DNA of 64,000 nt from an archaeon. GTDB lineage: Archaea > Undinarchaeota > Undinarchaeia > Undinarchaeales > JBDRKL01. This document shows, piece after piece, positions 11,121 to 63,719 of this stretch. A program made the translations under genes and the position numbers. The notes below the pieces were generated by a model, which worked only from the letters and a program-made list of their open reading frames with translations, was not told the DNA's origin and ran no database searches. The DNA lies in the NCBI GenBank assembly GCA_043814055.1, contig JBDRKL010000012.1, forward strand, positions 89,170 to 153,169, given 5' to 3'. Each line of letters opens with the position of its first letter. The first letter of the stretch is position 1.

Positions 11121-11199
11121 TAGGCAGATATCAGTTTGTAGTTCGTAGTAACTACCAACCACTAACTTTAAAAAGAGCTAAGAATATAAGAGTTGTACA

Positions 11200-11370
11200 A
11201 TGGGAAAGAAAGAAAAGGTCAGCCTGCCGCCAATGGGCGGGGGATTGTTCAGGCCAACAGAAGGCGAAGGAACAGGACTAAAGCTCAAGCCAGAGCACGT
11301 AATTGGAGCTGTTATTTTTGTGATTGTTTTTGAGGTTTTTCTTCACTTTTACGGGAACTCGCTGTTTTAA
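11200..11370 (+). CDS. Preprotein translocase Sec61-beta subunit (56 aa), missing from the ORF track
   Basis: MGKKEKVSLPPMGGGLFRPTEGEGTGLKLKPEHVIGAVIFVIVFEVFLHFYGNSLF has the PxGxGL motif, KPEHVIG and a single C-terminal TM helix. Its 3' end overlaps the convergent Lrp gene. Confidence 0.75.
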   Translation: MGKKEKVSLPPMGGGLFRPTEGEGTGLKLKPEHVIGAVIFVIVFEVFLHFYGNSLF

Positions 11371-12397
11371 CTCCAGGAATTGAAAGTATTGGGGAATCAC
11401 GTTCAGTAAAAGATGAGCCGTAGGTTTGCGTCCGTTCTATGCCGGGAATTTTGATAATCTCTTTGATGATTTGCTTCATGATTTCACGCTCGCTTGAGCC
11501 GTGAGCCTTCGCAACTATGTTGAACTTTCCGGAGAGGATATGTGCCTGAGTGATATTTGGTATGGCTGCAAGAGCCTTCAGGATGTCGTCAAGCTTTATG
11601 TTCTTGTCTATTAGTTTGTCAGCTGAGATTGTTGAGACGAAGATGAAAGCGGTTGCAGGAAGGCCTATTTTTCCAGGGACTATTTTTGCGTGGTAGCCAA
11701 TGATAACCTCGTTTGTTTCAAGGCGGCGCCTGCGGTGGTGCACAGTGGTTGGAGGGATGTTAAGTTTTGAGCCAAGCTCACGGGAAGAGAGCATGCAATT
11801 CTGCTGAAGCTCAGCGAGGATTTTGCGGTCAGTGTTGTCAAGCTTGACCTCGCCTTCCTTGAGCACTGGGATTTCCTTTTTCACTGACTCGTGGATAGAA
11901 AGCTCGTGGCTGTCCAGGGCAGAGAGTCCGATGAAAAGCGTCTCGGTTCGGTTGATTCCAGGAACAGCTCGGATTTGGTCAATAAAGAGACGACCGATCT
12001 CCCAATCAGTGGCGCCTGTTGCCCTAACGAGTATGTCCAAATCCCCTGTGAGAATGTCAACGCTTGAGACGTTGTTAAGCTTTCCAATCTCGTGAGTGAT
12101 GTCATATACGCTCAGCTTTTCCTGCATCATCAGGTGTAGGGAGAGAATTTCAATAAGAATTAGGACTGATGTATTAAGGCCGACTGCGTTTGGATTTAAT
12201 TTTGCGTGGTATCCTGATATCACGCCGGTTGCCTCAAGTCGCTTGCGCCTGTGATGTGCAGTGGTTGAGGGGATTCCAACTTTTGAGCCAAGCTCACGGG
12301 AGGAGAGCATGCAATTCTGCTGAAGCTCAGCAAGAATCAAGCGGTCAGTGTTGTCAAGCTTGACCGGAGCTATGGGATTTGGGAGAGTTTCTTTCAT
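11312..12397 (-). CDS. Tandem-fused double Lrp/AsnC family transcription regulator (two HTH+RAM units in one chain)
   Basis: Two ~170-aa units each start VKLDNTDR(L/K)ILAELQQNCMLSSRELGSK. The DNA carries an ~83-nt near-identical repeat at 11768-11850 and 12278-12361. Confidence 0.85.
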   Translation of the reverse strand: MKETLPNPIAPVKLDNTDRLILAELQQNCMLSSRELGSKVGIPSTTAHHRRKRLEATGVISGYHAKLNPNAVGLNTSVLILIEILSLHLMMQEKLSVYDITHEIGKLNNVSSVDILTGDLDILVRATGATDWEIGRLFIDQIRAVPGINRTETLFIGLSALDSHELSIHESVKKEIPVLKEGEVKLDNTDRKILAELQQNCMLSSRELGSKLNIPPTTVHHRRRRLETNEVIIGYHAKIVPGKIGLPATAFIFVSTISADKLIDKNIKLDDILKALAAIPNITQAHILSGKFNIVAKAHGSSEREIMKQIIKEIIKIPGIERTQTYGSSFTERDSPILSIPGVKTASSRKSEEKPQKQSQK

Positions 12398-12430
12398 TTT
12401 GATATTGGCACATACAGTACAAAGTGTTAT

Positions 12431-12446
12431 TTTTGTACATTATACC
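12431..12446. promoter_or_regulatory. AT-rich box TTTTGTACATTA inside the imperfect palindrome GTACAAAGTGTTATTTTTGTAC, upstream of the Lrp gene. Candidate Lrp operator
   Basis: The same 12-mer recurs at 59086-59097 upstream of lysW. GTACAAGAT direct repeats are nearby. Confidence 0.4.
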
Positions 12447-12743
12447 ATAAATGAGTAGCTGTTTATATGTTTTTCTAATAATTTGCAATGTAAATCGCCT
12501 AAATAGGAACATACGTACAAGATAGCGAAGGAACGTATAAACAAGAAAATGGGTATTGATTGGATAATGTACAAGATTTAGTTAGTATTCGTTAGAATAT
12601 CATAAAATATACAATATTTTTTAAGAAACTTATATATAAGGAATAGTGTATAAGAAAGGCGTGGTGGAAATGAAACTATATGGAGAGAGAGGCGCAATAG
12701 AAAGTTTGAGAGCCAATTTGTATGGCAGAAAGGTGGTGGAGAA

Positions 12744-12971
12744 ATGGTAGTGGCTTTCATACTGGCCAATACAAAAACAGGGAAAGAGAGCGATGTAATA
12801 AACAGCCTGAAGGTTATGCCAGAGATTAAGGAGGCGCACAGCGTGTATGGAGACTATGACATTTACATACGGGCGGAGACTGAGAATCTTGAGCACCTGA
12901 ATGACTTCCTGCTCAAGAAAATACGCGGCGTTACAGGCATATCTTGCACGACCACGATGATTGGCCTTTAG
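12744..12971 (+). CDS. Stand-alone Lrp/AsnC C-terminal (RAM) domain protein
   Basis: 75 aa beta-alpha-beta-beta-alpha-beta effector domain (VYGDYDIYIRAETENLEHLNDFL). Divergent from the double-Lrp gene. Confidence 0.7.
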   Translation: MVVAFILANTKTGKESDVINSLKVMPEIKEAHSVYGDYDIYIRAETENLEHLNDFLLKKIRGVTGISCTTTMIGL

Positions 12972-13063
12972 GCTCTGGGGTCTGCTAGTTCTGAATAGAC
13001 GTGAGTATTGATTATAGAAAGTGTTAAAAGGGTTCGCGGAGAGAATAGTCTAGTTATAACATA

Positions 13064-13182
13064 GGGGGTGTGGTCTAGTTTGGTATGATACTTGCTTTGG
13101 GAGCAAGTGGTCCCCAGTTCAAAGGCGTGCGAAGCGTGACTTAACATGCGCTTGTGCGTGGAAAATCTGGGCACCCCCACCA
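13064..13182 (+). tRNA. tRNA-Pro (anticodon TGG) with a ~42-nt intron in the T-loop and encoded CCA
   Basis: Acceptor GGGGGTG/CACCCCC, D-loop AGTTTGGTA, anticodon arm CTTGC-TTTGGGA-GCAAG, T-stem CCCAG (13113-17)/CTGGG (13167-71) split by an insertion at 13124-13165. Discriminator A then CCA. Confidence 0.7.
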
Positions 13183-13288
13183 CTCCGCCTAGCCGCGGAG
13201 AAAGGCTGTCCCGCATCACACAACACACACTCGTGTGTGTGCATAAATCACCGCAATGCGGTGATTCATGTTTGTGATGCTGCGGGAC
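13183..13288. terminator. Nested long palindrome between the convergent tRNA-Pro and tmk genes, candidate bidirectional terminator or structured RNA
   Basis: CTCCGC..GCGGAG hairpin (13183-13200), then GTCCCGCATCACA...TGTGATGCTGCGGGAC (13208-13288) enclosing CACACACTCGTGTGTGTG and AATCACCGCAATGCGGTGATT. Confidence 0.5.
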
Positions 13289-16591: not shown

Positions 16592-17022
16592 AAACAAGCG
16601 AGGATTTTTCAAAGCTCAAGAAGGGCGACGAGGTTTTGCTCTCTGGGAAAGTTTACATTGCCCGAGATTTGGCGCATAAAAAATTGCTTGAAGAGGATTT
16701 TGATTTGAAAATTGATGTTATTTACCACTGCGGACCTTTGTTTAAGGGCGATGAGATTGTTTCTGCAGGGCCGACCACTTCAAAGAGAATGGAACCATAC
16801 ACGAAAGAGGTTGTTGAGAAGTACGGGGTTCGCGGGATAATTGGGAAAGGCGGGATGGAAGTGCCTGAAGGTGTTGTTTATTTTGAAGCTGTGGGCGGAG
16901 CAGGAGCTCTGCTTGCGAAGAAAATTAAGAGCTGGAAGAAGATTGTTGACTTGGGACCGGTTGAGAGCATTCTTGAATGCGAGGTTGAGGAGTTTCCGGT
17001 TATAGTTTCATCTTCGCGCTGA
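16588..17022 (+). CDS. Fe-S hydro-lyase beta subunit (class I fumarate hydratase beta)
   Basis: GPTTSKRMEPYT...GIIGKGGM is typical of the fumarate/tartrate dehydratase beta (C-terminal) domain. Confidence 0.75.
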   Translation: MKTSEDFSKLKKGDEVLLSGKVYIARDLAHKKLLEEDFDLKIDVIYHCGPLFKGDEIVSAGPTTSKRMEPYTKEVVEKYGVRGIIGKGGMEVPEGVVYFEAVGGAGALLAKKIKSWKKIVDLGPVESILECEVEEFPVIVSSSR

Positions 17023-17623
17023 GCAGTTCATACGCCTTTGTAGCATCTTTTTCATCAACTATAAAAATCGTGTCAGTGTAGCAGGATATTACCTCAACTA
17101 TGTTTATACCTTCGGCTGAAAGGAGCCCTGTTGTATACTCAACAAAACCAAGTGTTTCTTCAACATCAATGGGGCTGATTAAAGCAATCTCCACAAGGTT
17201 CTTGCGTATTTCTATGGCGTTGACTACATCAACCTTTTCCAGATCCTCGTTGTTTATCACTAGAGTGTCGGCATTTGAGCCGCTTGAGGTATGAATTGGC
17301 TTGAAACCTTTAACTTTCAGCTCCCCCTTCTTGAAAGTTATGTCAACAACACAGTTCTTCATGCTGATTTGAGACTTTGAAAGGAGCTTCAGGAGTTTTG
17401 TTTCCTGGACGCTGGCTTCCTTGCTCAAAGTTTCAGCAAAGCGGCGGGCTGAGACAGCGATTGCATCGTTGCTGACTTTTCGGCCAAGGGTTTCAACTAT
17501 AGCGGGCTTTATTTTTTCAGCTAGAGCAGAGTAGTTTATTATGCCATTCTCCATTGCATACAACAAGTACGGCTTTTTCTCTAAGTTCTCGCGCACAGTT
17601 TTTGCGAGTGAGTTTTGCTTCAT
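17000..17623 (-). CDS. HTH + ACT domain putative regulator of amino-acid metabolism (COG2150-like)
   Basis: N-terminal HTH-like GIINYSALAEKI and C-terminal ACT-like modules. Paralog of 58372..59052. Divergent from dapF-argGH-carAB. Confidence 0.55.
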   Translation of the reverse strand: MKQNSLAKTVRENLEKKPYLLYAMENGIINYSALAEKIKPAIVETLGRKVSNDAIAVSARRFAETLSKEASVQETKLLKLLSKSQISMKNCVVDITFKKGELKVKGFKPIHTSSGSNADTLVINNEDLEKVDVVNAIEIRKNLVEIALISPIDVEETLGFVEYTTGLLSAEGINIVEVISCYTDTIFIVDEKDATKAYELLSAKMKL

Positions 17624-17751: not shown

Positions 17752-18618
17752 ATGAAATTAGAATTTAAAAAATATCATCATTGCGGAAACGACTTCGTTA
17801 TAGTTGATGATTTAACTGGGACGATCGAGCCAGAGTTTGCAAAGAAGCTCAGCAAAAACCTTCTCAAGAGAAAATATGCAATTGGGGGAAATGATTTACT
17901 TTATTTGAAAAGTGATGAAGATACTGATGCATTTATGCACATTTACAATGTCTCGGATGTTGAGGGGAGTATGTGCGGAAATGGCAGTCTTTGTGCTGGA
18001 AAATATCTCAGTGGAAAGCTTGGTAAAAATGAAATAAAAATAAAAACCTTGTCTGGAATTGTTAATATTAAAAAGATAGGCAATAACTTCTTTGAACTTG
18101 GGCTAGGACAGGTTTTTCACAAGTATGGCGAGCTTTCAAAGTTTTTCAAGTATCCTGGGCTGGCTAAAGAGGAAAGTGTGCTTGCAGTTGAATTTAACAT
18201 AAAAGAAGTTCCACCGTTTATTGGAAATGTTGTGCATGTTGGGGAACCACACTTGGTTGTTTTTGAAACTGAGGTAGATAAAGTGGATTTGCAGAAGTTT
18301 GGAGATGCTGTAAACAATTGCAAAAAACATTTTCCAGAATTTATAAACTTAAATCTTGTACAGATTTTGGACGAGAAAACAATAAAAATCCGCACATATG
18401 AGCGCAGCTGTTTTGAAGAAACCGATGCTTGCGCCACCGGAAGCACATGTGCAGCATATGTTTGCAAATTACTGGGAAATCTAAAAGAAGATATGATTAC
18501 TGTCAAGGTCAAGGGTGGAGAATTCAAAGTTTATGCAAAAAAGAATATGAATTATCTTGTTGGGAGCCCAGAGAAAGTTTTTGAAGGTCATGTAGCGATA
18601 CCAGAGGGGGAATTTTAG
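17752..18618 (+). CDS. dapF: Diaminopimelate epimerase
   Basis: The two catalytic Cys regions CGNDFVIVD and ETDACATGSTCAA. Low GC relative to the downstream argG. Confidence 0.8.
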   Translation: MKLEFKKYHHCGNDFVIVDDLTGTIEPEFAKKLSKNLLKRKYAIGGNDLLYLKSDEDTDAFMHIYNVSDVEGSMCGNGSLCAGKYLSGKLGKNEIKIKTLSGIVNIKKIGNNFFELGLGQVFHKYGELSKFFKYPGLAKEESVLAVEFNIKEVPPFIGNVVHVGEPHLVVFETEVDKVDLQKFGDAVNNCKKHFPEFINLNLVQILDEKTIKIRTYERSCFEETDACATGSTCAAYVCKLLGNLKEDMITVKVKGGEFKVYAKKNMNYLVGSPEKVFEGHVAIPEGEF

Positions 18619-25846: not shown

Positions 25847-26033
25847 GGATCCGTAGCCTAGTCTGGATAAGGCGACAGCCTTCTAACAACCGCAAAATCG
25901 GTTGACGCTTTGGGTCGCATTCCGCTTCGCGGAAGCGACCCGGCTCGCGCGTTCGCACGCGCTCGCTCGGTCAATTCGAGCAAGTTGGTTGGAAGCCAGC
26001 TGTAAATCAGGGGTTCAAATCCCCTCGGATCCA
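25847..26033 (+). tRNA. tRNA-Arg (anticodon TCT) with a 112-nt intron at canonical position 37/38
   Basis: Acceptor GGATCCG/CGGATCC, D-arm GCCT-AGTCTGGATA-AGGC, anticodon stem ACAGC (25875-79) with loop CTTCTA|A, 3' stem GCTGT at 25999-26003, T-arm AGGGG-TTCAAAT-CCCCT. Intron ~25886-25997. Confidence 0.8.
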
Positions 26034-28496: not shown

Positions 28497-28511
28497 TAGA
28501 GACAAAAGTGT

Positions 28512-28694
28512 GCCAGGGTAGCCTAGTTTGGATAAGGCGACAGCCTCCTAACAGCGGCAAATTCCGCTGGCAAATTGGGCCGCATTCGGCTTTCAGCCGA
28601 AGCGACCCGGCCCGCTGCGCGGGCAAAAGCCAATAGCGGAAAGCTGATGGAAGCAAGCTGTAAGTCGAGGGTTCAAATCCCTCCTCTGGTGCCA
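28512..28694 (+). tRNA. tRNA-Arg (anticodon CCT) with a 105-nt intron at 37/38 and encoded CCA
   Basis: Acceptor GCCAGGG/CTCTGGT (two G-U pairs), D-arm GCCT-AGTTTGGATA-AGGC, anticodon stem ACAGC with loop CTCCTA|A, 3' stem GCTGT (28657-61), T-arm GAGGG-TTCAAAT-CCCTC. Intron 28551-28655. Confidence 0.75.
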
Positions 28695-28699
28695 TAATA

Positions 28700-43818: not shown

Positions 43819-43915
43819 AGCCCCGTGGTGTAGTGGCCAAGCATACGAGCCTCTGGAGGGTTTTAAAACTCAGGGTGAGCTGGTGACAACGGTTCGAATC
43901 CGTTCGGGGCTACCA
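43819..43915 (+). tRNA. tRNA-Gln (anticodon CTG) with a ~21-nt intron at 37/38 and encoded CCA
   Basis: Acceptor AGCCCCG/CGGGGCT, D-arm GTGT-AGTGGCCAA-GCAT, anticodon stem CGAGC with loop CTCTGG|(intron AGGGTTTTAAAACTCAGGGTG)|A, 3' stem GCTGG (one G-G mismatch), T-arm AACGG-TTCGAAT-CCGTT. Confidence 0.6.
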
Positions 43916-57370: not shown

Positions 57371-58375
57371 GTGGCTATGTACGACGAGGCCGAATCAAAA
57401 AAACTGCAGGACAAAATATTTGACGTGCGCAATGAGAATCCGAAGAGCGGCGCCTGGTGGTGGTGGTTCTGGCTGTTCTTCTGGAAGAACCCTGAGAATC
57501 CAGCGAAGCCGAAGCAGCTGATGATACTCTGGAGCACCAAGCAGGAACGCAGGATTAGGTGCAATTCACTTGATATCAAATTGGACCATTCCCTGGAGAA
57601 GGAGAGCAATTGGAAAGTAATGGACGGGGCAGTGGCAGCGTGGTATTTTGACGGGAAGGAAATGCACCACGATCATTTGTTGGAGCAGTGCAACCTGAAT
57701 CTTGATGATTCTGTGGTTACTAAGGAACCAAAAACGTCGTTTACTGGAAAATTGGATAATTATAATGTCAAGATTGGGAAAGACATGGACTTTAGGGCGC
57801 AGTTGAAGGAGAAGAATGATTTCACAATGCCTGAGTACCACGAGAACGAGTACCTGAAGGGAAAATATAATTACAAGATTTTGAGGATGAATAAGATGAG
57901 CCTGGGCGGGAGAGTTGACGGAAAAGCGATAAGCGGAAGCGCATATTTCCAGAGGGTTTTTGTCAACTCGCCGGCTGTGCCGTGGCATTGGGGCGTGTTC
58001 CATTTCCCAAAGGGCGAAATTCTGACTTATTACAGGCCGCACGTAATGGGAATTCCTGTGAAGAAGGACATCGCGTTCTGGGACGGGAAGGAACTGCACG
58101 AGTTCAGGGATATCAAGGTCAGGGCGGTTGGGGCAGAAACTCCGGTATTTTTTGTCTCTGGCAAGAACGAAACAAAGAAGATTCAGTTTGGCGTGCACAC
58201 CTATTCTCACTCGTCCTGGACGTTCAGGAAGCCGCTGCAGAAGCTTGTTTACAATGAGTATCCTGCACTTTTGAAGGGTTTGGTTTTGGAAGACAAGACA
58301 GGGAAGAACTTGTTAAAGAGAAACGTTGGAGAAGGGGTTGGGAATGCTGAGCACACTACCGGTCTGTTGTTTTAG
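57371..58375 (+). CDS. Hypothetical protein (334 aa) with an extreme tryptophan cluster near the N-terminus
   Basis: SGAWWWWFWLFFWKNPENP carries 6 Trp in 11 residues. No other recognisable motif. Confidence 0.4.
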   Translation: MAMYDEAESKKLQDKIFDVRNENPKSGAWWWWFWLFFWKNPENPAKPKQLMILWSTKQERRIRCNSLDIKLDHSLEKESNWKVMDGAVAAWYFDGKEMHHDHLLEQCNLNLDDSVVTKEPKTSFTGKLDNYNVKIGKDMDFRAQLKEKNDFTMPEYHENEYLKGKYNYKILRMNKMSLGGRVDGKAISGSAYFQRVFVNSPAVPWHWGVFHFPKGEILTYYRPHVMGIPVKKDIAFWDGKELHEFRDIKVRAVGAETPVFFVSGKNETKKIQFGVHTYSHSSWTFRKPLQKLVYNEYPALLKGLVLEDKTGKNLLKRNVGEGVGNAEHTTGLLF

Positions 58376-59052
58376 GATTTGCTCTGCTCGATGAGCTTGT
58401 TCAAAGCTTCGAACGCGTGGGTTGCGTCTTTTTTTCGGACAAGGATTGAGAGCTCTGTTGTGGTTGAAACAATATCTATTATGTTTATGCCGTGAATTGA
58501 GATTTGTCTTGTAACGTGCGAGATTATGCCTGGTATGTCCCACCAGCTTGGGGGGGCCATTATGTGGAGCTCGACAGCATCGCGTTCTTCTACGAGTATT
58601 TTCTTGCCCTGAAGCTTTTTGAGCAGGGTGTCGGCGTGTTTTTCTTCGATTATAATTGAAATTTCTGAAACTCCCTGAATAACGCTCAGGAGCTCGCCCT
58701 TTTTTGTGTCCACTTTTTTTGAGATTTCATTAAGGATTGTGAAGATGTCGTTGGTTTTTTCAACAGAGATGTCAGCGACACCGGATTTTAAATTAACTGT
58801 GCATTCACGGAGGACATCATTTATTTTTTCCTCGAATTTTGAATCTTGTGCGGCTTTTGTGTAGCGTTTTACTGCCATAATAACTGCTTGTGGATTTACC
58901 TCAATGCAGAGTTCATCCTCAAGCTCAGGAAGCAGGTCTCTAGCCAATGCGCTCTGATTGACTAAACCGCGAGCTAGGAAGCTCTCCAGCATTGGCATGG
59001 CTGAGATTTTAGTCTCAACTAAGTGGGAAATTGATTTTTTCACATATATCAC
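58372..59052 (-). CDS. HTH + ACT domain putative regulator (paralog of 17000..17623)
   Basis: GLVNQSALARDL matches GIINYSALAEKI of the paralog. GTG start. Divergent from the lysW operon. Confidence 0.55.
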   Translation of the reverse strand: MIYVKKSISHLVETKISAMPMLESFLARGLVNQSALARDLLPELEDELCIEVNPQAVIMAVKRYTKAAQDSKFEEKINDVLRECTVNLKSGVADISVEKTNDIFTILNEISKKVDTKKGELLSVIQGVSEISIIIEEKHADTLLKKLQGKKILVEERDAVELHIMAPPSWWDIPGIISHVTRQISIHGINIIDIVSTTTELSILVRKKDATHAFEALNKLIEQSKS

Positions 59053-59085
59053 CTTTTTTTAACAGTTCTTAGTTAAACAGTTACA

Positions 59086-59110
59086 TTTTGTACATTACCT
59101 ATATAAAGGT
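59086..59110 (+). promoter_or_regulatory. TTTTGTACATTA box followed directly by the TATA-like CCTATATAAAGG, ~100 nt upstream of lysW
   Basis: The same 12-mer appears in the Lrp gene promoter at 12431-12442. A strong RBS GGAGGTGA lies 7 nt before the lysW ATG. Confidence 0.4.
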
Positions 59111-59210
59111 TTTCATACACTGAAGTAAAGCATGGAACTCCTAGTGATTACTCGGAAGCCTCGCAAGGATTGAGCTAGAGTGGAGTTTCCTCATTTTGGA
59201 GGTGATTAAT

Positions 59211-59375
59211 ATGGTAAATTGTGTAGAATGCAACGCGGCTGTTGAACTGCCATCGGATGCACGGCAGGGAGAGATAGTGGACTGCCCAGAGTGCGGGATA
59301 GAACTTGAGATAGTTAACCCAGGAACTGGAGAAGTAAGAGTAGCTGAAGCTACAGAAGAGGACTGGGGCGAATGA
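59211..59375 (+). CDS. lysW: Amino-group carrier protein LysW/ArgW (54 aa), missing from the ORF track
   Basis: [54 protein letters not shown] has the zinc ribbon CxxC...CxxC and a C-terminal EDWGE. ATGA-coupled to the next gene. Confidence 0.8.
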
Positions 59376-60211
59376 GAATAGGTTTCCTTTACTCAAGAAT
59401 AAGAGAAGAAGAGAAGCTTTTGCTTAATGAGCTTGAGCATCGTGGAATAGACGTTGAGATGCTTGATGACCGCGAGCTTGTTTTCAGGCCGGGGCAAGAT
59501 GAATTTGACCTAGATGTTGTACTTGAAAGAAGTGTTTCTCATTCAAGGGCGTTGTATGCGTTAAGAATGTTCAGACAGGCAGGTGTTCCGTGTGTGAATG
59601 AGTATGATACTGCATTGACTTGTGGGGACAAGCTGCTCACAAGCGTTGCACTGCAAGAGAATGATGTGAGAACTCCAAGGATTGAAGTAGCATTTACGCC
59701 TGAAAGTGCACTAAGAGCTATTGAAGAAATGGGTTATCCTGTTGTGATGAAACCGGTTGTTGGCTCTTGGGCTCGGCTTGTTACAAAAATAAACGACAGA
59801 GATGCAGCGGAAGCAATTCTTGAACACAAAGATGTGCTTGGAACCGCGTATTTGCACTCAATTTACTATATTCAGGAGTATGTTGAAAAGCCCGGAAGGG
59901 ATATACGGGCTTTTGTGATTGGAGATAAGGTAATTGGAGCTATTTACAGAAATTCGCCTCATTGGATAACGAACACGAGCAGGGGCGGGACTGCAAGCAA
60001 TTGTCCTGTTACGAATGAGCTTAGAGATGTTGCAGTGAATGCAGCGGAAGCAGTTGGCGGCGGGATAGTTGCGCCAGATTTGATGGAGACCCCAAACGGA
60101 TTGACTGTGCACGAGGTAAACTACACTATGGAATTCAGGAACAGCATAGAGCCAACTGGAGTGGATATTCCTGCAAGGATTGTTGATTATATTGAGGAGG
60201 TGGCAAGATGA
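59372..60211 (+). CDS. lysX: LysX/ArgX, RimK-type ATP-grasp ligase that attaches glutamate or aminoadipate to LysW
   Basis: ATP-grasp fold, 279 aa, immediately downstream of lysW. Confidence 0.8.
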
Positions 60212-61209
60212 GAGTAAGTATTGTTGGAGGCTCTGGATATACTGGCGGGGAATTGGTTAGGATTCTGCTGAACCACCCAGAGGTTGAGCTTGGGGAGATT
60301 ACATCAAGGAGTTTTGCCGGTCGGAGCCTGTGGAAGGCGCACCCTAATCTGAGGAATGTGCAGCATAGGTTTAGTGAGTACTCTGCAGATAGGGTTGGGG
60401 AATCTGATGTGGTTTTTACTTGCTTGCCGCATACTGCTTCAATGGGGATCGTACCAGAACTTGTTGAGAATACAAGAGTTGTGGATCTTGGGGCTGACTT
60501 CAGGCTCAGGTCTGCTGAGGTGTATAGGGAGTGGTACGGAGTTGAGCACACAGCGCCTGAGCTTTTGGAAAATGCTGTTTATGGGATTCCTGAGCTGCAC
60601 GGGGATGAAATGAGAAATGCGAACTTGGTAGCTGGGGCTGGGTGCGAGGCCACTTCGTCTATTTTGGCGCTTGCTCCGCTGAGAGGGAACCTGCAGAGCG
60701 TGATTGTGGATGCAAAGATTGGCGGCTGCGCTGCTGGAAGAACTGCAAATGCTGGGACGCATTATCCCGAGAGGGCGAATGCAGTGAGGCCTTATGCTCC
60801 TGAGAAGCACAGGCATGCTGCTGAGATAGAGCAGGAGGTTGGCGTGAGCGTGGAGATGACTGCGCATGCAGTTGGAATGGTTCGCGGAATTCTTACGACT
60901 AATCATGTGCTTGGGTATGAGGAGGGAGAGCTGAATGAAACCCTGAAGGCGTACAGGGATTTCTACAATGATTCGCCTTTTGTTAGGGTAACTCCAACCG
61001 CGGTGAACAATCTGCCGAATCCAAAGTATGTGCTTGGCTCAAATTACTGCGACGTTGGGCTTGCGCAGAGCGGGAATCGCTTGGTTGTATTCTCGGCGCT
61101 GGACAACATGATGAAAGGGGCTTCTGGGCAGGCAGTGCAGTGCATGAATATCATGTTCGGTTTTGAAGAAACGCAGGGACTGGAGGCCCTTCCAATCTAT
61201 CCAATATGA
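60208..61209 (+). CDS. argC: N-acetyl-gamma-glutamyl-phosphate reductase homolog (ArgC/LysY)
   Basis: [21 protein letters not shown]-binding region and a catalytic Cys region. Confidence 0.85.
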
Positions 61210-61970
61210 TGATCGTAGTAAAAGTTGGCGGTAGCGTGCTCAGTAACATAGAACAGATCGCCAGAGATTTGAAAGAAAGAGAGTTTGTCCTAGTGCACGG
61301 AATCGGCCCGCAGATGGATGAGATGCAGCGTGCGATGGGAGTGGAGCCGCAGTGGCACTACTCGCCTAGCGGGATAAAGTTCAGGTACACGGATGCAGAG
61401 GCAATGCGATTGTTCAATATGGTCGCGTCTGGGATGAGCAATGAAGTTGTTGTTGCACTACAGGCGCAGGGTATTGATTCCGTGGGGGTTGTTGCTGCGC
61501 TGAATGCAAGGAGGAAGGAGCGGATTAGGATAGTGGAGAACGGGCGAAAGAGAATGCTTGAAGGGGATTACAGCGGGAAGATTGAAAGCTGTAGTGCTGA
61601 AGTGCTACAGAATCTTATCTCCAGCGGGATTGCGCCTGTTGTACCGCCGATTGCAATAAGTGAGAATCATGAGCTCGTTAATGTGAACGGGGACAGGGCA
61701 GCCGCTGTTATAGCAAGAGACTTGGAAATTGATACAATTGTAAATCTGAGTGATATTCCTGGGGTATTGAGAGGTAGTAGAGTTATTAGGAGAGTTGGCA
61801 GAGATGAACTTGAAGCATTGCGCAGAGAAGTGGATGGAGGAATGACTATGAAGCTTCTCGCAGTTCAAGAAGCGTTTGACTTTGGAGCAAAGAAAGTAAT
61901 AATTGCACCTGGGAATGTTGAGAACCCAGTAGAAAACGCGCTGAAAGGCAGGGGGACGGTGTTTGAATGA
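61206..61970 (+). CDS. argB: Acetylglutamate kinase homolog (ArgB/LysZ)
   Basis: Amino-acid kinase family VVKVGGSVL, 254 aa. Confidence 0.85.
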   Translation: MMIVVKVGGSVLSNIEQIARDLKEREFVLVHGIGPQMDEMQRAMGVEPQWHYSPSGIKFRYTDAEAMRLFNMVASGMSNEVVVALQAQGIDSVGVVAALNARRKERIRIVENGRKRMLEGDYSGKIESCSAEVLQNLISSGIAPVVPPIAISENHELVNVNGDRAAAVIARDLEIDTIVNLSDIPGVLRGSRVIRRVGRDELEALRREVDGGMTMKLLAVQEAFDFGAKKVIIAPGNVENPVENALKGRGTVFE

Positions 61971-63112
61971 GCCTGGCAAAGACATATGGAATGAGAGGAA
62001 TTGAACTTGTTCGTGGCAGCGGAGCTTTGGTTTATGATTTGGAGGGAAACGAATATGTTGACTGCACTGCAGGGGTCGGAGTTGTGCTGCTCGGGCATGC
62101 GCACCCAGAACTAACAAGAGCGATAAGCGAGCAGACACAGAGGCTGGTGACATGCTACGGGATTTTTGACAATGATGTGAGGAATGAATTTGCAAGGAGA
62201 TTTGAAGCGGTTACCCCTGGAAATTTGAATACCTTCTTCTTGTCTAATTCAGGCTCAGAGAGTGTTGAGTGCGCTTTGAAGTTAGTTAGGAGGTATACTG
62301 GGCGAACAGAAGTTGTTGCTATGAGCAGAGCGTTTCATGGGAGGACTCTTGGGGCGTTGAGCGCAATTTGGAAGCCAGCGTACAGAAAAGCGTTTGAGCC
62401 GCTTGTGCCTGGTTTTTCGCATGTGAAGTATGGAGATTCAGAGGGATTGAGGAATGTAGTTAGTGAGAGCACTGCTGCGGTTATAGTTGAGCCAGTACAG
62501 GGCGAGGCTGGGGTTGTGCTACCGCCTGAAGGGTATCTACAAGAAGTGAGGGAAATCTGCAATGAAAGTGGTGCCTTGCTCATATTTGATGAGGTGCAGA
62601 GCTTTGGAAGAACTGGAAATTATTTCGCAGCGCAGACTTTTGGAGTTACTCCAGACATTGCGTGTGTTGCAAAAGGTGTTGCAGGTGGGGTTCCGATGGG
62701 AGTTACTGCAAGCACAGAGGAAATCTTTTCAGCTCTGGGGGTGGGAGAGCACGGCTCCACCTTTGGGGGGAATCCGCTTTCCTGCGCTGCAGGAATTGCG
62801 ACTTTGAATGTTTTGCAGAGTGAGAATTTGATTGAACGCGGGGCTGAGATGGGACAGCGGCTTCTTGCAGGGCTTAGAAAAATTGAAAATGAGAGCATCA
62901 GGGAAGTTCGCGGAATTGGGGCAATGGTCGCGCTTGAGGCAAGGTTTCCGTGCGGGGGCGCATTAAAGAGTTGTATGGAAAATGGTGTTTTGGTGCTTGC
63001 GTCTGGGCGAAATGTTATGAGGTTCCTACCGCCACTTGTGATTAGCGAAGAGCAAGTTGATACGGTGATTGAGGTAGTGAGGTCGAGTTTAAATGCAAAT
63101 AGCACTGCTTGA
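61967..63112 (+). CDS. argD: Acetylornithine / acetyl-lysine aminotransferase (ArgD/LysJ)
   Basis: Class III PLP aminotransferase with the PLP lysine region FDEVQSFGRTG. Confidence 0.85.
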   Translation: MSLAKTYGMRGIELVRGSGALVYDLEGNEYVDCTAGVGVVLLGHAHPELTRAISEQTQRLVTCYGIFDNDVRNEFARRFEAVTPGNLNTFFLSNSGSESVECALKLVRRYTGRTEVVAMSRAFHGRTLGALSAIWKPAYRKAFEPLVPGFSHVKYGDSEGLRNVVSESTAAVIVEPVQGEAGVVLPPEGYLQEVREICNESGALLIFDEVQSFGRTGNYFAAQTFGVTPDIACVAKGVAGGVPMGVTASTEEIFSALGVGEHGSTFGGNPLSCAAGIATLNVLQSENLIERGAEMGQRLLAGLRKIENESIREVRGIGAMVALEARFPCGGALKSCMENGVLVLASGRNVMRFLPPLVISEEQVDTVIEVVRSSLNANSTA

Positions 63113-63719
63113 TTGCCACAAGAATCGAATTTGTGAATCTGAAAAAATAGCGAGAGCTCTGCCGTGTGAGGTTGATATTTTTGAAGTTAGGAAGTTTCAA
63201 TTTCCTAACATGGAAAACTATGATGCACTCGTTATTAGCGGAGCTGATAGATTTAGAGAGGAACATTTGTGGATTAGAAAAACACAAGAGTTTGTGAAAG
63301 GGCTCAGCGTTCCGATTTTGGGAATTTGTTTTGGAAACCATTTGCTAGCGAGCATTTATGGATATAATTTGATTGAAGCAAATGAGCCTGAAGTTGGATG
63401 GTATGAGATTGAAGTTGTGCAAAATCATCCATTATTTAATGGTTTGCCGGAAAGATTTGCGGTTTTTCAGCACCACAAAAGATTCGTTGAGAGTGGACCA
63501 AGAATCCTTGCTAGAAATGAAAATGGAGTTCAGGCAATTGAATATGCAGAAAATGTTTATGGAATACAATTTCACCCAGAGGAAAGCCCAGAAAGCGGTA
63601 TGGAGTATTTGAGAACGGATCCACATTGCGAGAATTTTGAAGCTGCGATTAGGGTAATTCCTAACGAATACATAGAAAGGGGAATTTTTGAGAATTTTAT
63701 TAGCTGTTGTAGGAATTAA
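63093..63719 (+). CDS. Class I glutamine amidotransferase-like protein
   Basis: GATase1 catalytic Cys region ILGICFGNHLL and HH...E later. Overlaps the argD 3' end by 20 nt. Confidence 0.6.
   Translation: MQIALLDCHKNRICESEKIARALPCEVDIFEVRKFQFPNMENYDALVISGADRFREEHLWIRKTQEFVKGLSVPILGICFGNHLLASIYGYNLIEANEPEVGWYEIEVVQNHPLFNGLPERFAVFQHHKRFVESGPRILARNENGVQAIEYAENVYGIQFHPEESPESGMEYLRTDPHCENFEAAIRVIPNEYIERGIFENFISCCRN

Follow-up and report, generated by a model that had tools for sequence, protein, structure and literature searches.

The locus and the architecture of the regulator

We analyzed a 64-kb stretch of archaeal DNA (contig JBDRKL010000012.1, 47% G+C; hereafter the window), in which one gene encodes a single-chain double regulator of the Lrp/AsnC family. 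The topoisomerase VI-A of the window has its nearest named relatives in metagenome-assembled genomes (MAGs) of Candidatus Undinarchaeales, at 74% identity. The neighbors of the regulator gene are the genes for topoisomerase VI-A, Sec61beta, a stand-alone RAM domain (hereafter the RAM-only gene), a tRNA-like gene and thymidylate kinase, and the regulator and the RAM-only gene are the only two open reading frames (ORFs) of the Lrp family in the window. In NCBI, the regulator ORF is annotated as 'MAG: AsnC family transcriptional regulator [archaeon]'. Our analysis makes it probable that this locus holds a fused pseudo-dimeric Lrp regulator with concerted evolution of its helix-turn-helix (HTH) segments, a RAM-only partner and probable autoregulation; a link to the lysW operon of the window is assessed separately below and lies outside this estimate. 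An original prediction made from the DNA letters had pointed to this locus, and its observation is confirmed while its interpretation is partly supported.

The regulator contains two stretches each of the HTH_AsnC-type, HTH_24 and AsnC_trans_reg domains of Pfam. The HTH model PF13404 matched with 94 bits (4e-27) in stretches at amino acids (aa) 14-55 and 186-227, and the RAM model PF01037 matched with 67 bits (1.5e-18), also in two stretches. The two halves align in register with a shift of 172 aa or 516 nt, and both recognition helices are strongly basic (PSTTAHHRRKRLE / PPTTVHHRRRRLE). As read from these domains, the regulator consists of two complete Lrp/AsnC units in head-to-tail fusion, in the order HTH-RAM-linker-HTH-RAM, just as the original prediction had described it. 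A structure predicted by AlphaFold2 (AF2) from an alignment of 21 sequences (pLDDT 79.3, pTM 0.76) shows the RAM fold (beta-alpha-beta-beta-alpha-beta) twice, with low confidence in the linker and the tail. In the Lrp/AsnC family, the feast/famine regulatory proteins (FFRPs), the minimal DNA-binding unit is a dimer formed via the RAM domains, and the effector, an amino acid or another metabolite, is held at RAM interfaces. The regulator may represent such a homodimer turned into one polypeptide, which would fold as an intramolecular pseudo-dimer.

Two details concern the ends of the gene. The orthologues lack the additional C-terminal tail, for which disorder is predicted. The 3' end of the gene overlaps the convergent Sec61beta gene (11200-11370) by 59 nt (11312-11370), and TTGTACAA overlaps the start codon of the latter (11193-11200).

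Table 1. Features of the regulator locus and of the lysW region (window coordinates)
Feature	Position	Strand	Basis
Regulator gene, single-chain double Lrp/AsnC, 361 aa	11312..12397	-	ORF + Pfam
Regulator parts: unit 1 ~aa 12-160; linker aa 159-183; unit 2 ~aa 184-335; tail from aa 347			
Gene-conversion tract copy 1, codons 12-39, HTH helices 1-2 of unit 1	12281..12364	-	nt/codon identity
Gene-conversion tract copy 2, codons 184-211, HTH helices 1-2 of unit 2	11765..11848	-	nt/codon identity
Box A, TGGTAT-AAT-GTACAA towards regulator, candidate 15-bp pseudo-palindromic operator	12433..12447	-	inverted repeat
TATA-like element AACATATAAACA, probable regulator core promoter (inferred); mirror partner 12532-12543	12460..12471	-	inner repeat
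Box B, TTGGAT-AAT-GTACAA towards RAM-only gene, mirror of box A	12560..12574	+	inverted repeat
TATA box of RAM-only gene CTTATATATAAGG (inferred)	12630..12642	+	conservation in L034
Stand-alone RAM-domain gene, 75 aa, divergent from regulator	12744..12971	+	ORF; PF01037 2e-15
ACT-domain gene (N-terminal 4-helix DUF7523 + double ACT), divergent from lysW	58372..59052	-	Pfam; AF2 pLDDT 86
Box C TAATGTACAAAA, half-site beside shared TATA, ACT-gene side	59086..59097	-	exact 12-mer; conservation
Near-palindromic TATA element CCTATATAAAGG between ACT-domain gene and lysW	59097..59108	.	sequence
lysW - lysX/argX - argC/lysY - argB/lysZ - argD/lysJ - GATase operon (LysW-carrier pathway)	59211..63719	+	ORFs, NCBIfam

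An old duplication with gene conversion between the HTH segments

The stretch of 83 nt and about 90% identity between the two halves, which had attracted attention originally, was confirmed as one of 84 nt with 78 identical positions (93%). Its identical residues are encoded by the same codon in 23 of 26 cases, compared with 8 of 16 in the RAM part (P ~5e-6). Past about codon 45, the halves agree at only 10-50% of third positions, and the two RAM halves are 27-28% identical to each other.

Comparison with orthologues was possible in two cases, P0002 on the assembly L001 and P0031 on L029, both from JGI sample 3300033064. P0002 is 46% identical to the regulator and P0031 is 79% identical to P0002; they were the only proteins below E=1e-30 in both of our large searches (5.8 billion proteins and 1.84 billion representatives). 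Across the three tandem genes, the RAM halves group by orthology, with identities of 0.34-0.38 for N-N, 0.40-0.41 for C-C and 0.21-0.30 for N-C pairs. A second set of figures puts orthologous RAM halves at 0.37-0.41 and paralogous ones at 0.21-0.28. The first 28 HTH residues, on the other hand, are more alike within a gene (0.96 in the window genome, 0.79 in L001) than between genomes (0.57-0.68). Moreover, L029 carries a tract of its own in another segment, namely the recognition helix (helix 3) and wing (17/21 identical codons, P ~8e-4), and the same codon-identity test found no conversion tract in L001.

Since the RAM halves group by orthology and the tracts differ between the loci, the duplication is old and the HTHs evolve in concert. 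In terms of these comparisons, the tandem form is older than the split from L001/L029, and the two HTH-coding segments have been made alike again and again, in patches, by short intragenic gene conversion, synonymous sites included. The original prediction had left the choice between recent duplication and gene conversion, of which gene conversion stands and recent duplication falls; the comparison of half-domain divergence in orthologues, which it had proposed, gave the old duplication with homogenised HTH patches described here. The HTH is generally the most conserved part of Lrp proteins, so a recent duplication of the whole unit, or purifying selection on the protein alone, might come to mind for the near-identical 84 nt, but this is hardly credible in view of the diverged RAM halves and third positions, a tandem form that predates the split, synonymous choices inexplicable by selection on the protein, and a tract placed elsewhere in L029 and missing in L001. 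It follows from the domain identities that the chain carries two non-equivalent sensor domains and two nearly equivalent DNA-reading heads.

The RAM-only partner gene

The divergent RAM-only gene, also reported originally, was verified and is syntenic in five loci. PF01037 spans residues 9-73 of its product, which is a single RAM domain without a DNA-binding domain. Its orthologues are divergent from the regulator in L001, L029 and L034 (59-60% identity to the window protein), and L035 has a divergent RAM-only gene too, for which the identity is without a reliable figure; the regulator is a fused double unit in three of these five loci. It is evident that the conservation of the RAM-only protein exceeds that of the regulator. 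Its identity to each of the two RAM halves is only 23-28%, so it is no recent spin-off. Because no RAM-only neighbor was found for the distant tandem Lrps P0003 and P0006, the pairing is not general to tandem Lrps.

Proteins of this kind are known as demi-FFRPs, such as DM1, DM2 and DM3 of Pyrococcus horikoshii and STS042, which have a RAM domain without HTH like the 75-aa partner. DM1 forms hetero-octamers with the full-length FL11 in vitro, which is a precedent for a RAM-only modulator (review PMC2995911). Unlike the demi-FFRPs, the RAM-only gene here is a fixed divergent neighbor of its presumed partner in all five loci, a conserved synteny that supports a partnership. By analogy, the RAM-only protein would enter the regulator assembly by RAM-RAM contacts and alter its oligomeric state or effector response; we regard this as possible, with the balance a little against it.

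Upstream of the RAM-only gene, the Shine-Dalgarno sequence and the ATG are present in two copies owing to a 74-nt direct repeat (12653-12672 / 12727-12746). The repeat yields a 26-codon upstream ORF (12670-12750) that ends in a stop overlapping the start of the RAM-only gene (ATGGTAG). Both the repeat and the upstream ORF are absent in L001 and L034.

Candidate operators in the control region of the regulator

The 346-bp spacer between the regulator and the RAM-only gene has a nested mirror structure. The outer inverted repeat (12433-12452 / 12555-12574) matches at 17 of 20 nt, which was reached in 2 of 300 shuffles, and the inner one (12460-12471 / 12532-12543) matches at 11 of 12. The candidate boxes A and B, 127 bp apart from centre to centre, flank the divergent promoters. 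Box A lies 36-50 nt upstream of the regulator ATG. Operators of archaeal FFRPs are 13-15-bp palindromes of the form abcdeWWWedcba, to which the arms of box A match at 4/6 and 6/6 positions (PMC2715240).

The 12-mer TTTTGTACATTA occurs exactly at 12431-12442(+) and 59086-59097(+), the two sites that the original prediction had claimed at the regulator and lysW promoters, and a one-mismatch inverted copy occurs at 12565-12576; the other sequence statements of the prediction hold as well. Exactly three copies of the 10-mer TAATGTACAA exist in the 64 kb, all at these three sites. The prediction had itself considered that the 12-mer might simply belong to a generic context of B recognition element (BRE) and TATA box. 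Within the window this origin is rejected, because typical promoters there have the form CC-TTTAAATA without TGTACA, and TGTACA occurs at only 10 sites in 64 kb. Moreover, TGTACA is present twice in each of the three tandem-Lrp control regions, whereas the two single-unit control regions have none.

The core promoters can be placed with some help from L034. The CATATAAA part of the TATA-like element of the regulator recurs 35 nt upstream of the ATG of the single-unit Lrp gene in L034, and this would put box A near the transcription start of the regulator, in a repressor position. Archaeal Lrp repressors that bind near the transcription start block the recruitment of RNA polymerase. Similarly, the TATA box of the RAM-only gene is kept as AACTTATATAGACC in L034, 30-40 nt upstream of the RAM-only ATG.

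Because a significant pair of inverted boxes surrounds the divergent promoters, autoregulation via GTACAA-type candidate boxes is plausible from the sequence. The regulator would bind two mirror-image 15-bp pseudo-palindromes, T(G/T)G(T/G)AT-AAT-GTACAA, which flank two back-to-back core promoters, and would thereby repress or tune its own gene and the partner gene. We lean slightly towards this proposal, against which several points weigh. The residue-to-base rules for FFRPs (Thr36 to T at b, His39 to A at c) predict TTA.., and boxes A and B show TGT.. (PMC2715240). Three TATA-like elements could serve the regulator gene. In addition, L001 and L029 are close relatives whose spacer repeats come from tandem duplication, and therefore their repeats are not independent evidence.

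The spacers of these two relatives (L001 322-1050, L029 331-1059) are about 730 bp long and consist of four tandem modules of about 155 bp, collinear between the contigs. Each module has a TTTTTGGAACA element, a TATA-like element and a palindrome ATGTRAA-W-TTTRCAA. The box variant of this lineage is of the ATGTRAAWTTTRCAA type. The last palindrome of L001, TTGCGAAATTTGCAA, is flanked by the TATA box and the regulator ATG and fits the FFRP operator form (PMC2715240).

Is the lysW promoter a target of the regulator?

The second exact copy of the 12-mer is found between the ACT-domain gene and lysW, one base from CTATATAAAGG and 113 nt upstream of the lysW ATG (59211). In this 158-bp spacer, CCTATATAAAGG is the only TATA and is one base from box C. 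Both of its orientations show the local CC+TATA form, so that it could serve the ACT-domain gene, lysW or both. Box C is thus positioned between the TATA and the expected start of the ACT-domain gene, and just upstream of the BRE/TATA for lysW. An arrangement TATATA(GG/CC)TA(A/T)TGTACAAAAT is conserved in the ACT-gene promoters of four genomes, the box itself is kept as TA(A/T)TGTACAAAAT in L030/L032, L033 and L036, and the conserved box of the ACT/lysine promoter in the relatives L030/L031 is TATTGTACAAAAT. The AAT centre of box C is shared with boxes A and B; the relatives have ATT. This conservation identifies box C as a real cis-element of the divergent ACT/lysine-pathway promoter.

The ACT part of the divergently encoded protein matches aspartokinase regulatory subunits in fold searches. 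In the four genomes, the orthologues of this protein (53-72% identity) invariably lie divergent to LysW/LysX or homocitrate-synthase genes. In the lysW operon, the NCBIfam LysW domain model scored 68 bits, below its cut-off of 75, and LysX_arch scored 339 bits, above its cut-off of 275.6; the same operon is present in L030.

If the regulator also acted here, it would do so at a half-site beside a TATA that is common to the ACT-domain gene and the lysW operon. Occupancy of box C would repress the ACT-domain gene, since the box lies between TATA and start, and could activate lysW, since it lies just upstream of the BRE/TATA. The case for this comes from the 10-mer: once it is defined by the inverted repeat of the regulator spacer, an analytic Markov estimate expects 0.009 further copies in the remaining intergenic DNA and 0.06 elsewhere in the window. 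Several points weigh against it. A blind search for any word shared between the spacers reaches the same score in about 40% of shuffles (P ~0.4), and four unrelated 11-mers are common to intergenic regions by chance. Box C keeps the right half-site and the centre only, with its left arm matching at 1/6 positions. It is conserved in L030, L033 and L036, and no tandem-Lrp orthologue from the samples of these three was found in the 5.8 billion proteins or the 1.84 billion representatives. The closest relative lineage, L034, has a single-unit Lrp at the syntenic position with a control region of its own that lacks TGTACA. Because the statistics are mixed (P ~0.01-0.06 when conditioned, ~0.4 when not) and this relative has a single unit, the lysW link is only suggestive, and the sequence evidence leaves an action of the same regulator at the ACT-lysW promoter rather doubtful.

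Alternatively, the box at 59086 may be a conserved ACT/lysine-promoter element that is read by another factor and is no tandem-Lrp operator at all, to which we give nearly an even chance. The factor could be the Lrp at the syntenic site, whatever its architecture, or the ACT-domain protein, provided that its N-terminal helices bind DNA, or the basal machinery at a TATA-proximal element; the identity with box A would then be due to chance, or the other factor would act at the tandem-Lrp promoter as well. Besides the objections just listed, the conservation of the element in four genomes next to proteins of 53-72% identity agrees with this idea, and so does the constant divergence of the ACT-domain gene from lysine-pathway genes, a layout typical of local regulators. 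Yet a third exact intergenic copy of the 10-mer is hard to expect by chance given the inverted-repeat core, and the box is absent from the other promoters of the window, hence it is no general promoter element. The ACT-domain protein also has no recognisable DNA-binding fold, since its PDB matches cover the double ACT module only, and the second of its putative helices is acidic; the fold search thus gave no evidence for an obvious DNA-binding regulator. Moreover, L030 and L034 may be different organisms.

Some further observations were made around this pathway. The ACT-domain protein has a paralogue of the same DUF7523 and double-ACT composition at 17000-17623(-), and each of the two is divergent from an amino-acid operon: lysW-argX-argC-argB-argD for the protein at 58372-59052(-) and dapF-argG for the paralogue. 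These uncharacterised proteins may be regulators or regulatory subunits of the LysW pathway. The cluster of the window (59372-63719) has one LysW/LysX pair, whereas L030 (4230-9843) has two LysW genes and two ATP-grasp ligases in one operon; the gene content suggests separate lysine and arginine carriers in L030 and a single, possibly bifunctional, carrier in the window. Upstream of lysW, the search for a structured RNA leader gave no Rfam family and a folding z-score of +0.9. A fourth box site at 18350-18362 is inside the dapF coding sequence and was set aside as probably due to chance.

Relation to NirDL, LysM and other members of the family

The whole chain of the regulator finds its best PDB matches in tandem NirDL (4ch7 and 4czc; E=3e-15, TM 0.59/0.67, about 350 columns), and the single-chain AF2 model, a prediction from the 21-sequence alignment, can be superposed on the pseudo-dimer of NirDL. 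Among solved structures, NirDL is the only single-chain tandem of Lrp-like units, and its pseudo-dimer arrangement resembles that of the regulator. NirDL and AhbA-AhbB are, however, enzymes (siroheme decarboxylase), and this resemblance raises the possibility that the 361-aa protein is an enzyme or a non-DNA-binding scaffold with the Lrp fold. We consider it very improbable: identity to NirDL is just 13%, against 25-29% (TM 0.8-0.9) of each half to Lrp regulators in the PDB; the NirDL-type models PF17805 (AsnC_trans_reg2) and PF22451 (HTH) gave no match at E<=0.01, against the clear scores of PF13404 and PF01037; and no heme or siroheme pathway gene lies near the regulator within the window. 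Because the NirDL models are unmatched, the recognition helices are basic and there is no heme context, the regulator is filed, on its sequence, as a DNA-binding member of the generic Lrp/AsnC family.

The original prediction had called the regulator LysM-like, and this did not survive. The NCBIfam LysM equivalog NF040947 gave 71.5 bits against a cut-off of 180; the model of E. coli-type Lrp scored higher with 135 bits, yet below its own cut-off of 233. LysM of Sulfolobus, an Lrp-type activator of lysWXJK, belongs to the same family, and one copy of our candidate box adjoins the TATA element of the lysW operon. However, LysM has a single unit and its gene is part of the lys cluster (lysYZM-WXJK), whereas the regulator here is a fused double unit 46 kb away (11.3-12.4 kb, with lysW at 59.2 kb), and no Lrp-family gene lies near lysW. 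The LysM box is of the GTACGA-WWW-TCGTAC type and is located 11 bp upstream of the BRE, whereas the GTACAA half-site here directly abuts the TATA (PMC3597687); no operator of the LysM type was found within 59053-59210. LysM orthology is ruled out by the NF040947 score together with this comparison of boxes.

Parallels are also seen with the archaeal FFRPs, such as FL11 (PH1519 of Pyrococcus), Ss-LrpB and ST1022/Grp, which combine HTH_AsnC with the RAM fold as does each half of the regulator. The candidate operators can be fitted to the abcdeWWWedcba form, with an AAT centre (PMC2715240), and a divergent, probably autoregulated layout is typical of the family. On the other hand, the solved FFRPs are single units of 140-190 aa, which were also the only matches of the regulator in a sequence search against solved structures, whereas the regulator is one chain of 361 aa with two non-equivalent RAM domains. 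Since the two units are fused and their RAM domains are non-equivalent, an obligate pseudo-heterodimer would replace the symmetric homodimer.

Distribution of tandem Lrp genes

Proteins of tandem length (295-376 aa) made up roughly a third of the best 150 representatives, and two HTH and two RAM stretches were found in all of the eight distant tandem-length proteins that were scanned (8/8), as well as in P0031. The tandem gene of the regulator's own family, on the other hand, was found in three independent assemblies (the window, L001 and L029) as three members only. Thus, the tandem Lrp architecture is common in databases, whereas the regulator's own family is very sparsely sampled and uncharacterised. 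No characterised tandem Lrp regulator was found in the literature that we searched. A search of genome contigs returned only distant, mostly bacterial, single-unit Lrp genes and no orthologues.

The topoisomerase VI-A of L034 is 87% identical to that of the window, and the syntenic slot beside Sec61beta is occupied there by the single-unit Lrp, of 159 aa. As its RAM domain has about 30% identity to each half of the regulator, an origin by collapse of a tandem gene through recombination between the repeats is unsupported. The relatives L039 and L040, which have a syntenic topoisomerase VI-A, contain no Lrp module at this site. In the same region of L034 (9479-13095), past a radical SAM gene, there is a second, distant tandem Lrp of 322 aa (25% identity). 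Behind it comes another RAM-only gene, with 68% identity to that of the window over 47 aa.

Significance of a fused Lrp regulator

Among the amino-acid-responsive regulators of archaea, Lrp/AsnC proteins are the most widespread, and their logic is that of symmetric dimers assembling into octamers. A covalent pseudo-dimer fixes the stoichiometry and frees the two sensor domains to diverge. The family of this regulator shows such sensor divergence directly, alongside the gene conversion that keeps the DNA-binding heads alike, and the regulator illustrates cleanly, in a natural case, how parts of one gene evolve in concert. Its fixed pairing with the RAM-only gene should lend itself to studies of what stand-alone RAM proteins do, which is still unexplained. 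In practical terms the value is limited, because tandem Lrps are already common, the three known members come from uncultured archaea and the tie to lysine and arginine is a hypothesis.

A farther-reaching scheme, which we think unlikely, would make the regulator an obligate asymmetric sensor in a DPANN-related (Undinarchaeales-like) archaeon. The two diverged RAM domains and the free RAM-only subunit would integrate different amino-acid signals, and gene conversion would be kept because the heads must stay equivalent for the pseudo-palindromic GTACAA boxes. Through the half-site, the regulator would switch between the aspartokinase-beta-like ACT protein and the LysW-carrier arginine/lysine operon.

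Other features of the window

The window contains tRNA genes with long or oddly placed insertions at 25847-26033, 43819-43915, about 28510-28695 and about 13060-13190. The Rfam tRNA calls among these were one of 187 nt at 25847-26033 and another at 43819-43912; the other two tRNA-like stretches, one of which ends in ...CACCA, were missed by ARAGORN and by Rfam at the gathering score.

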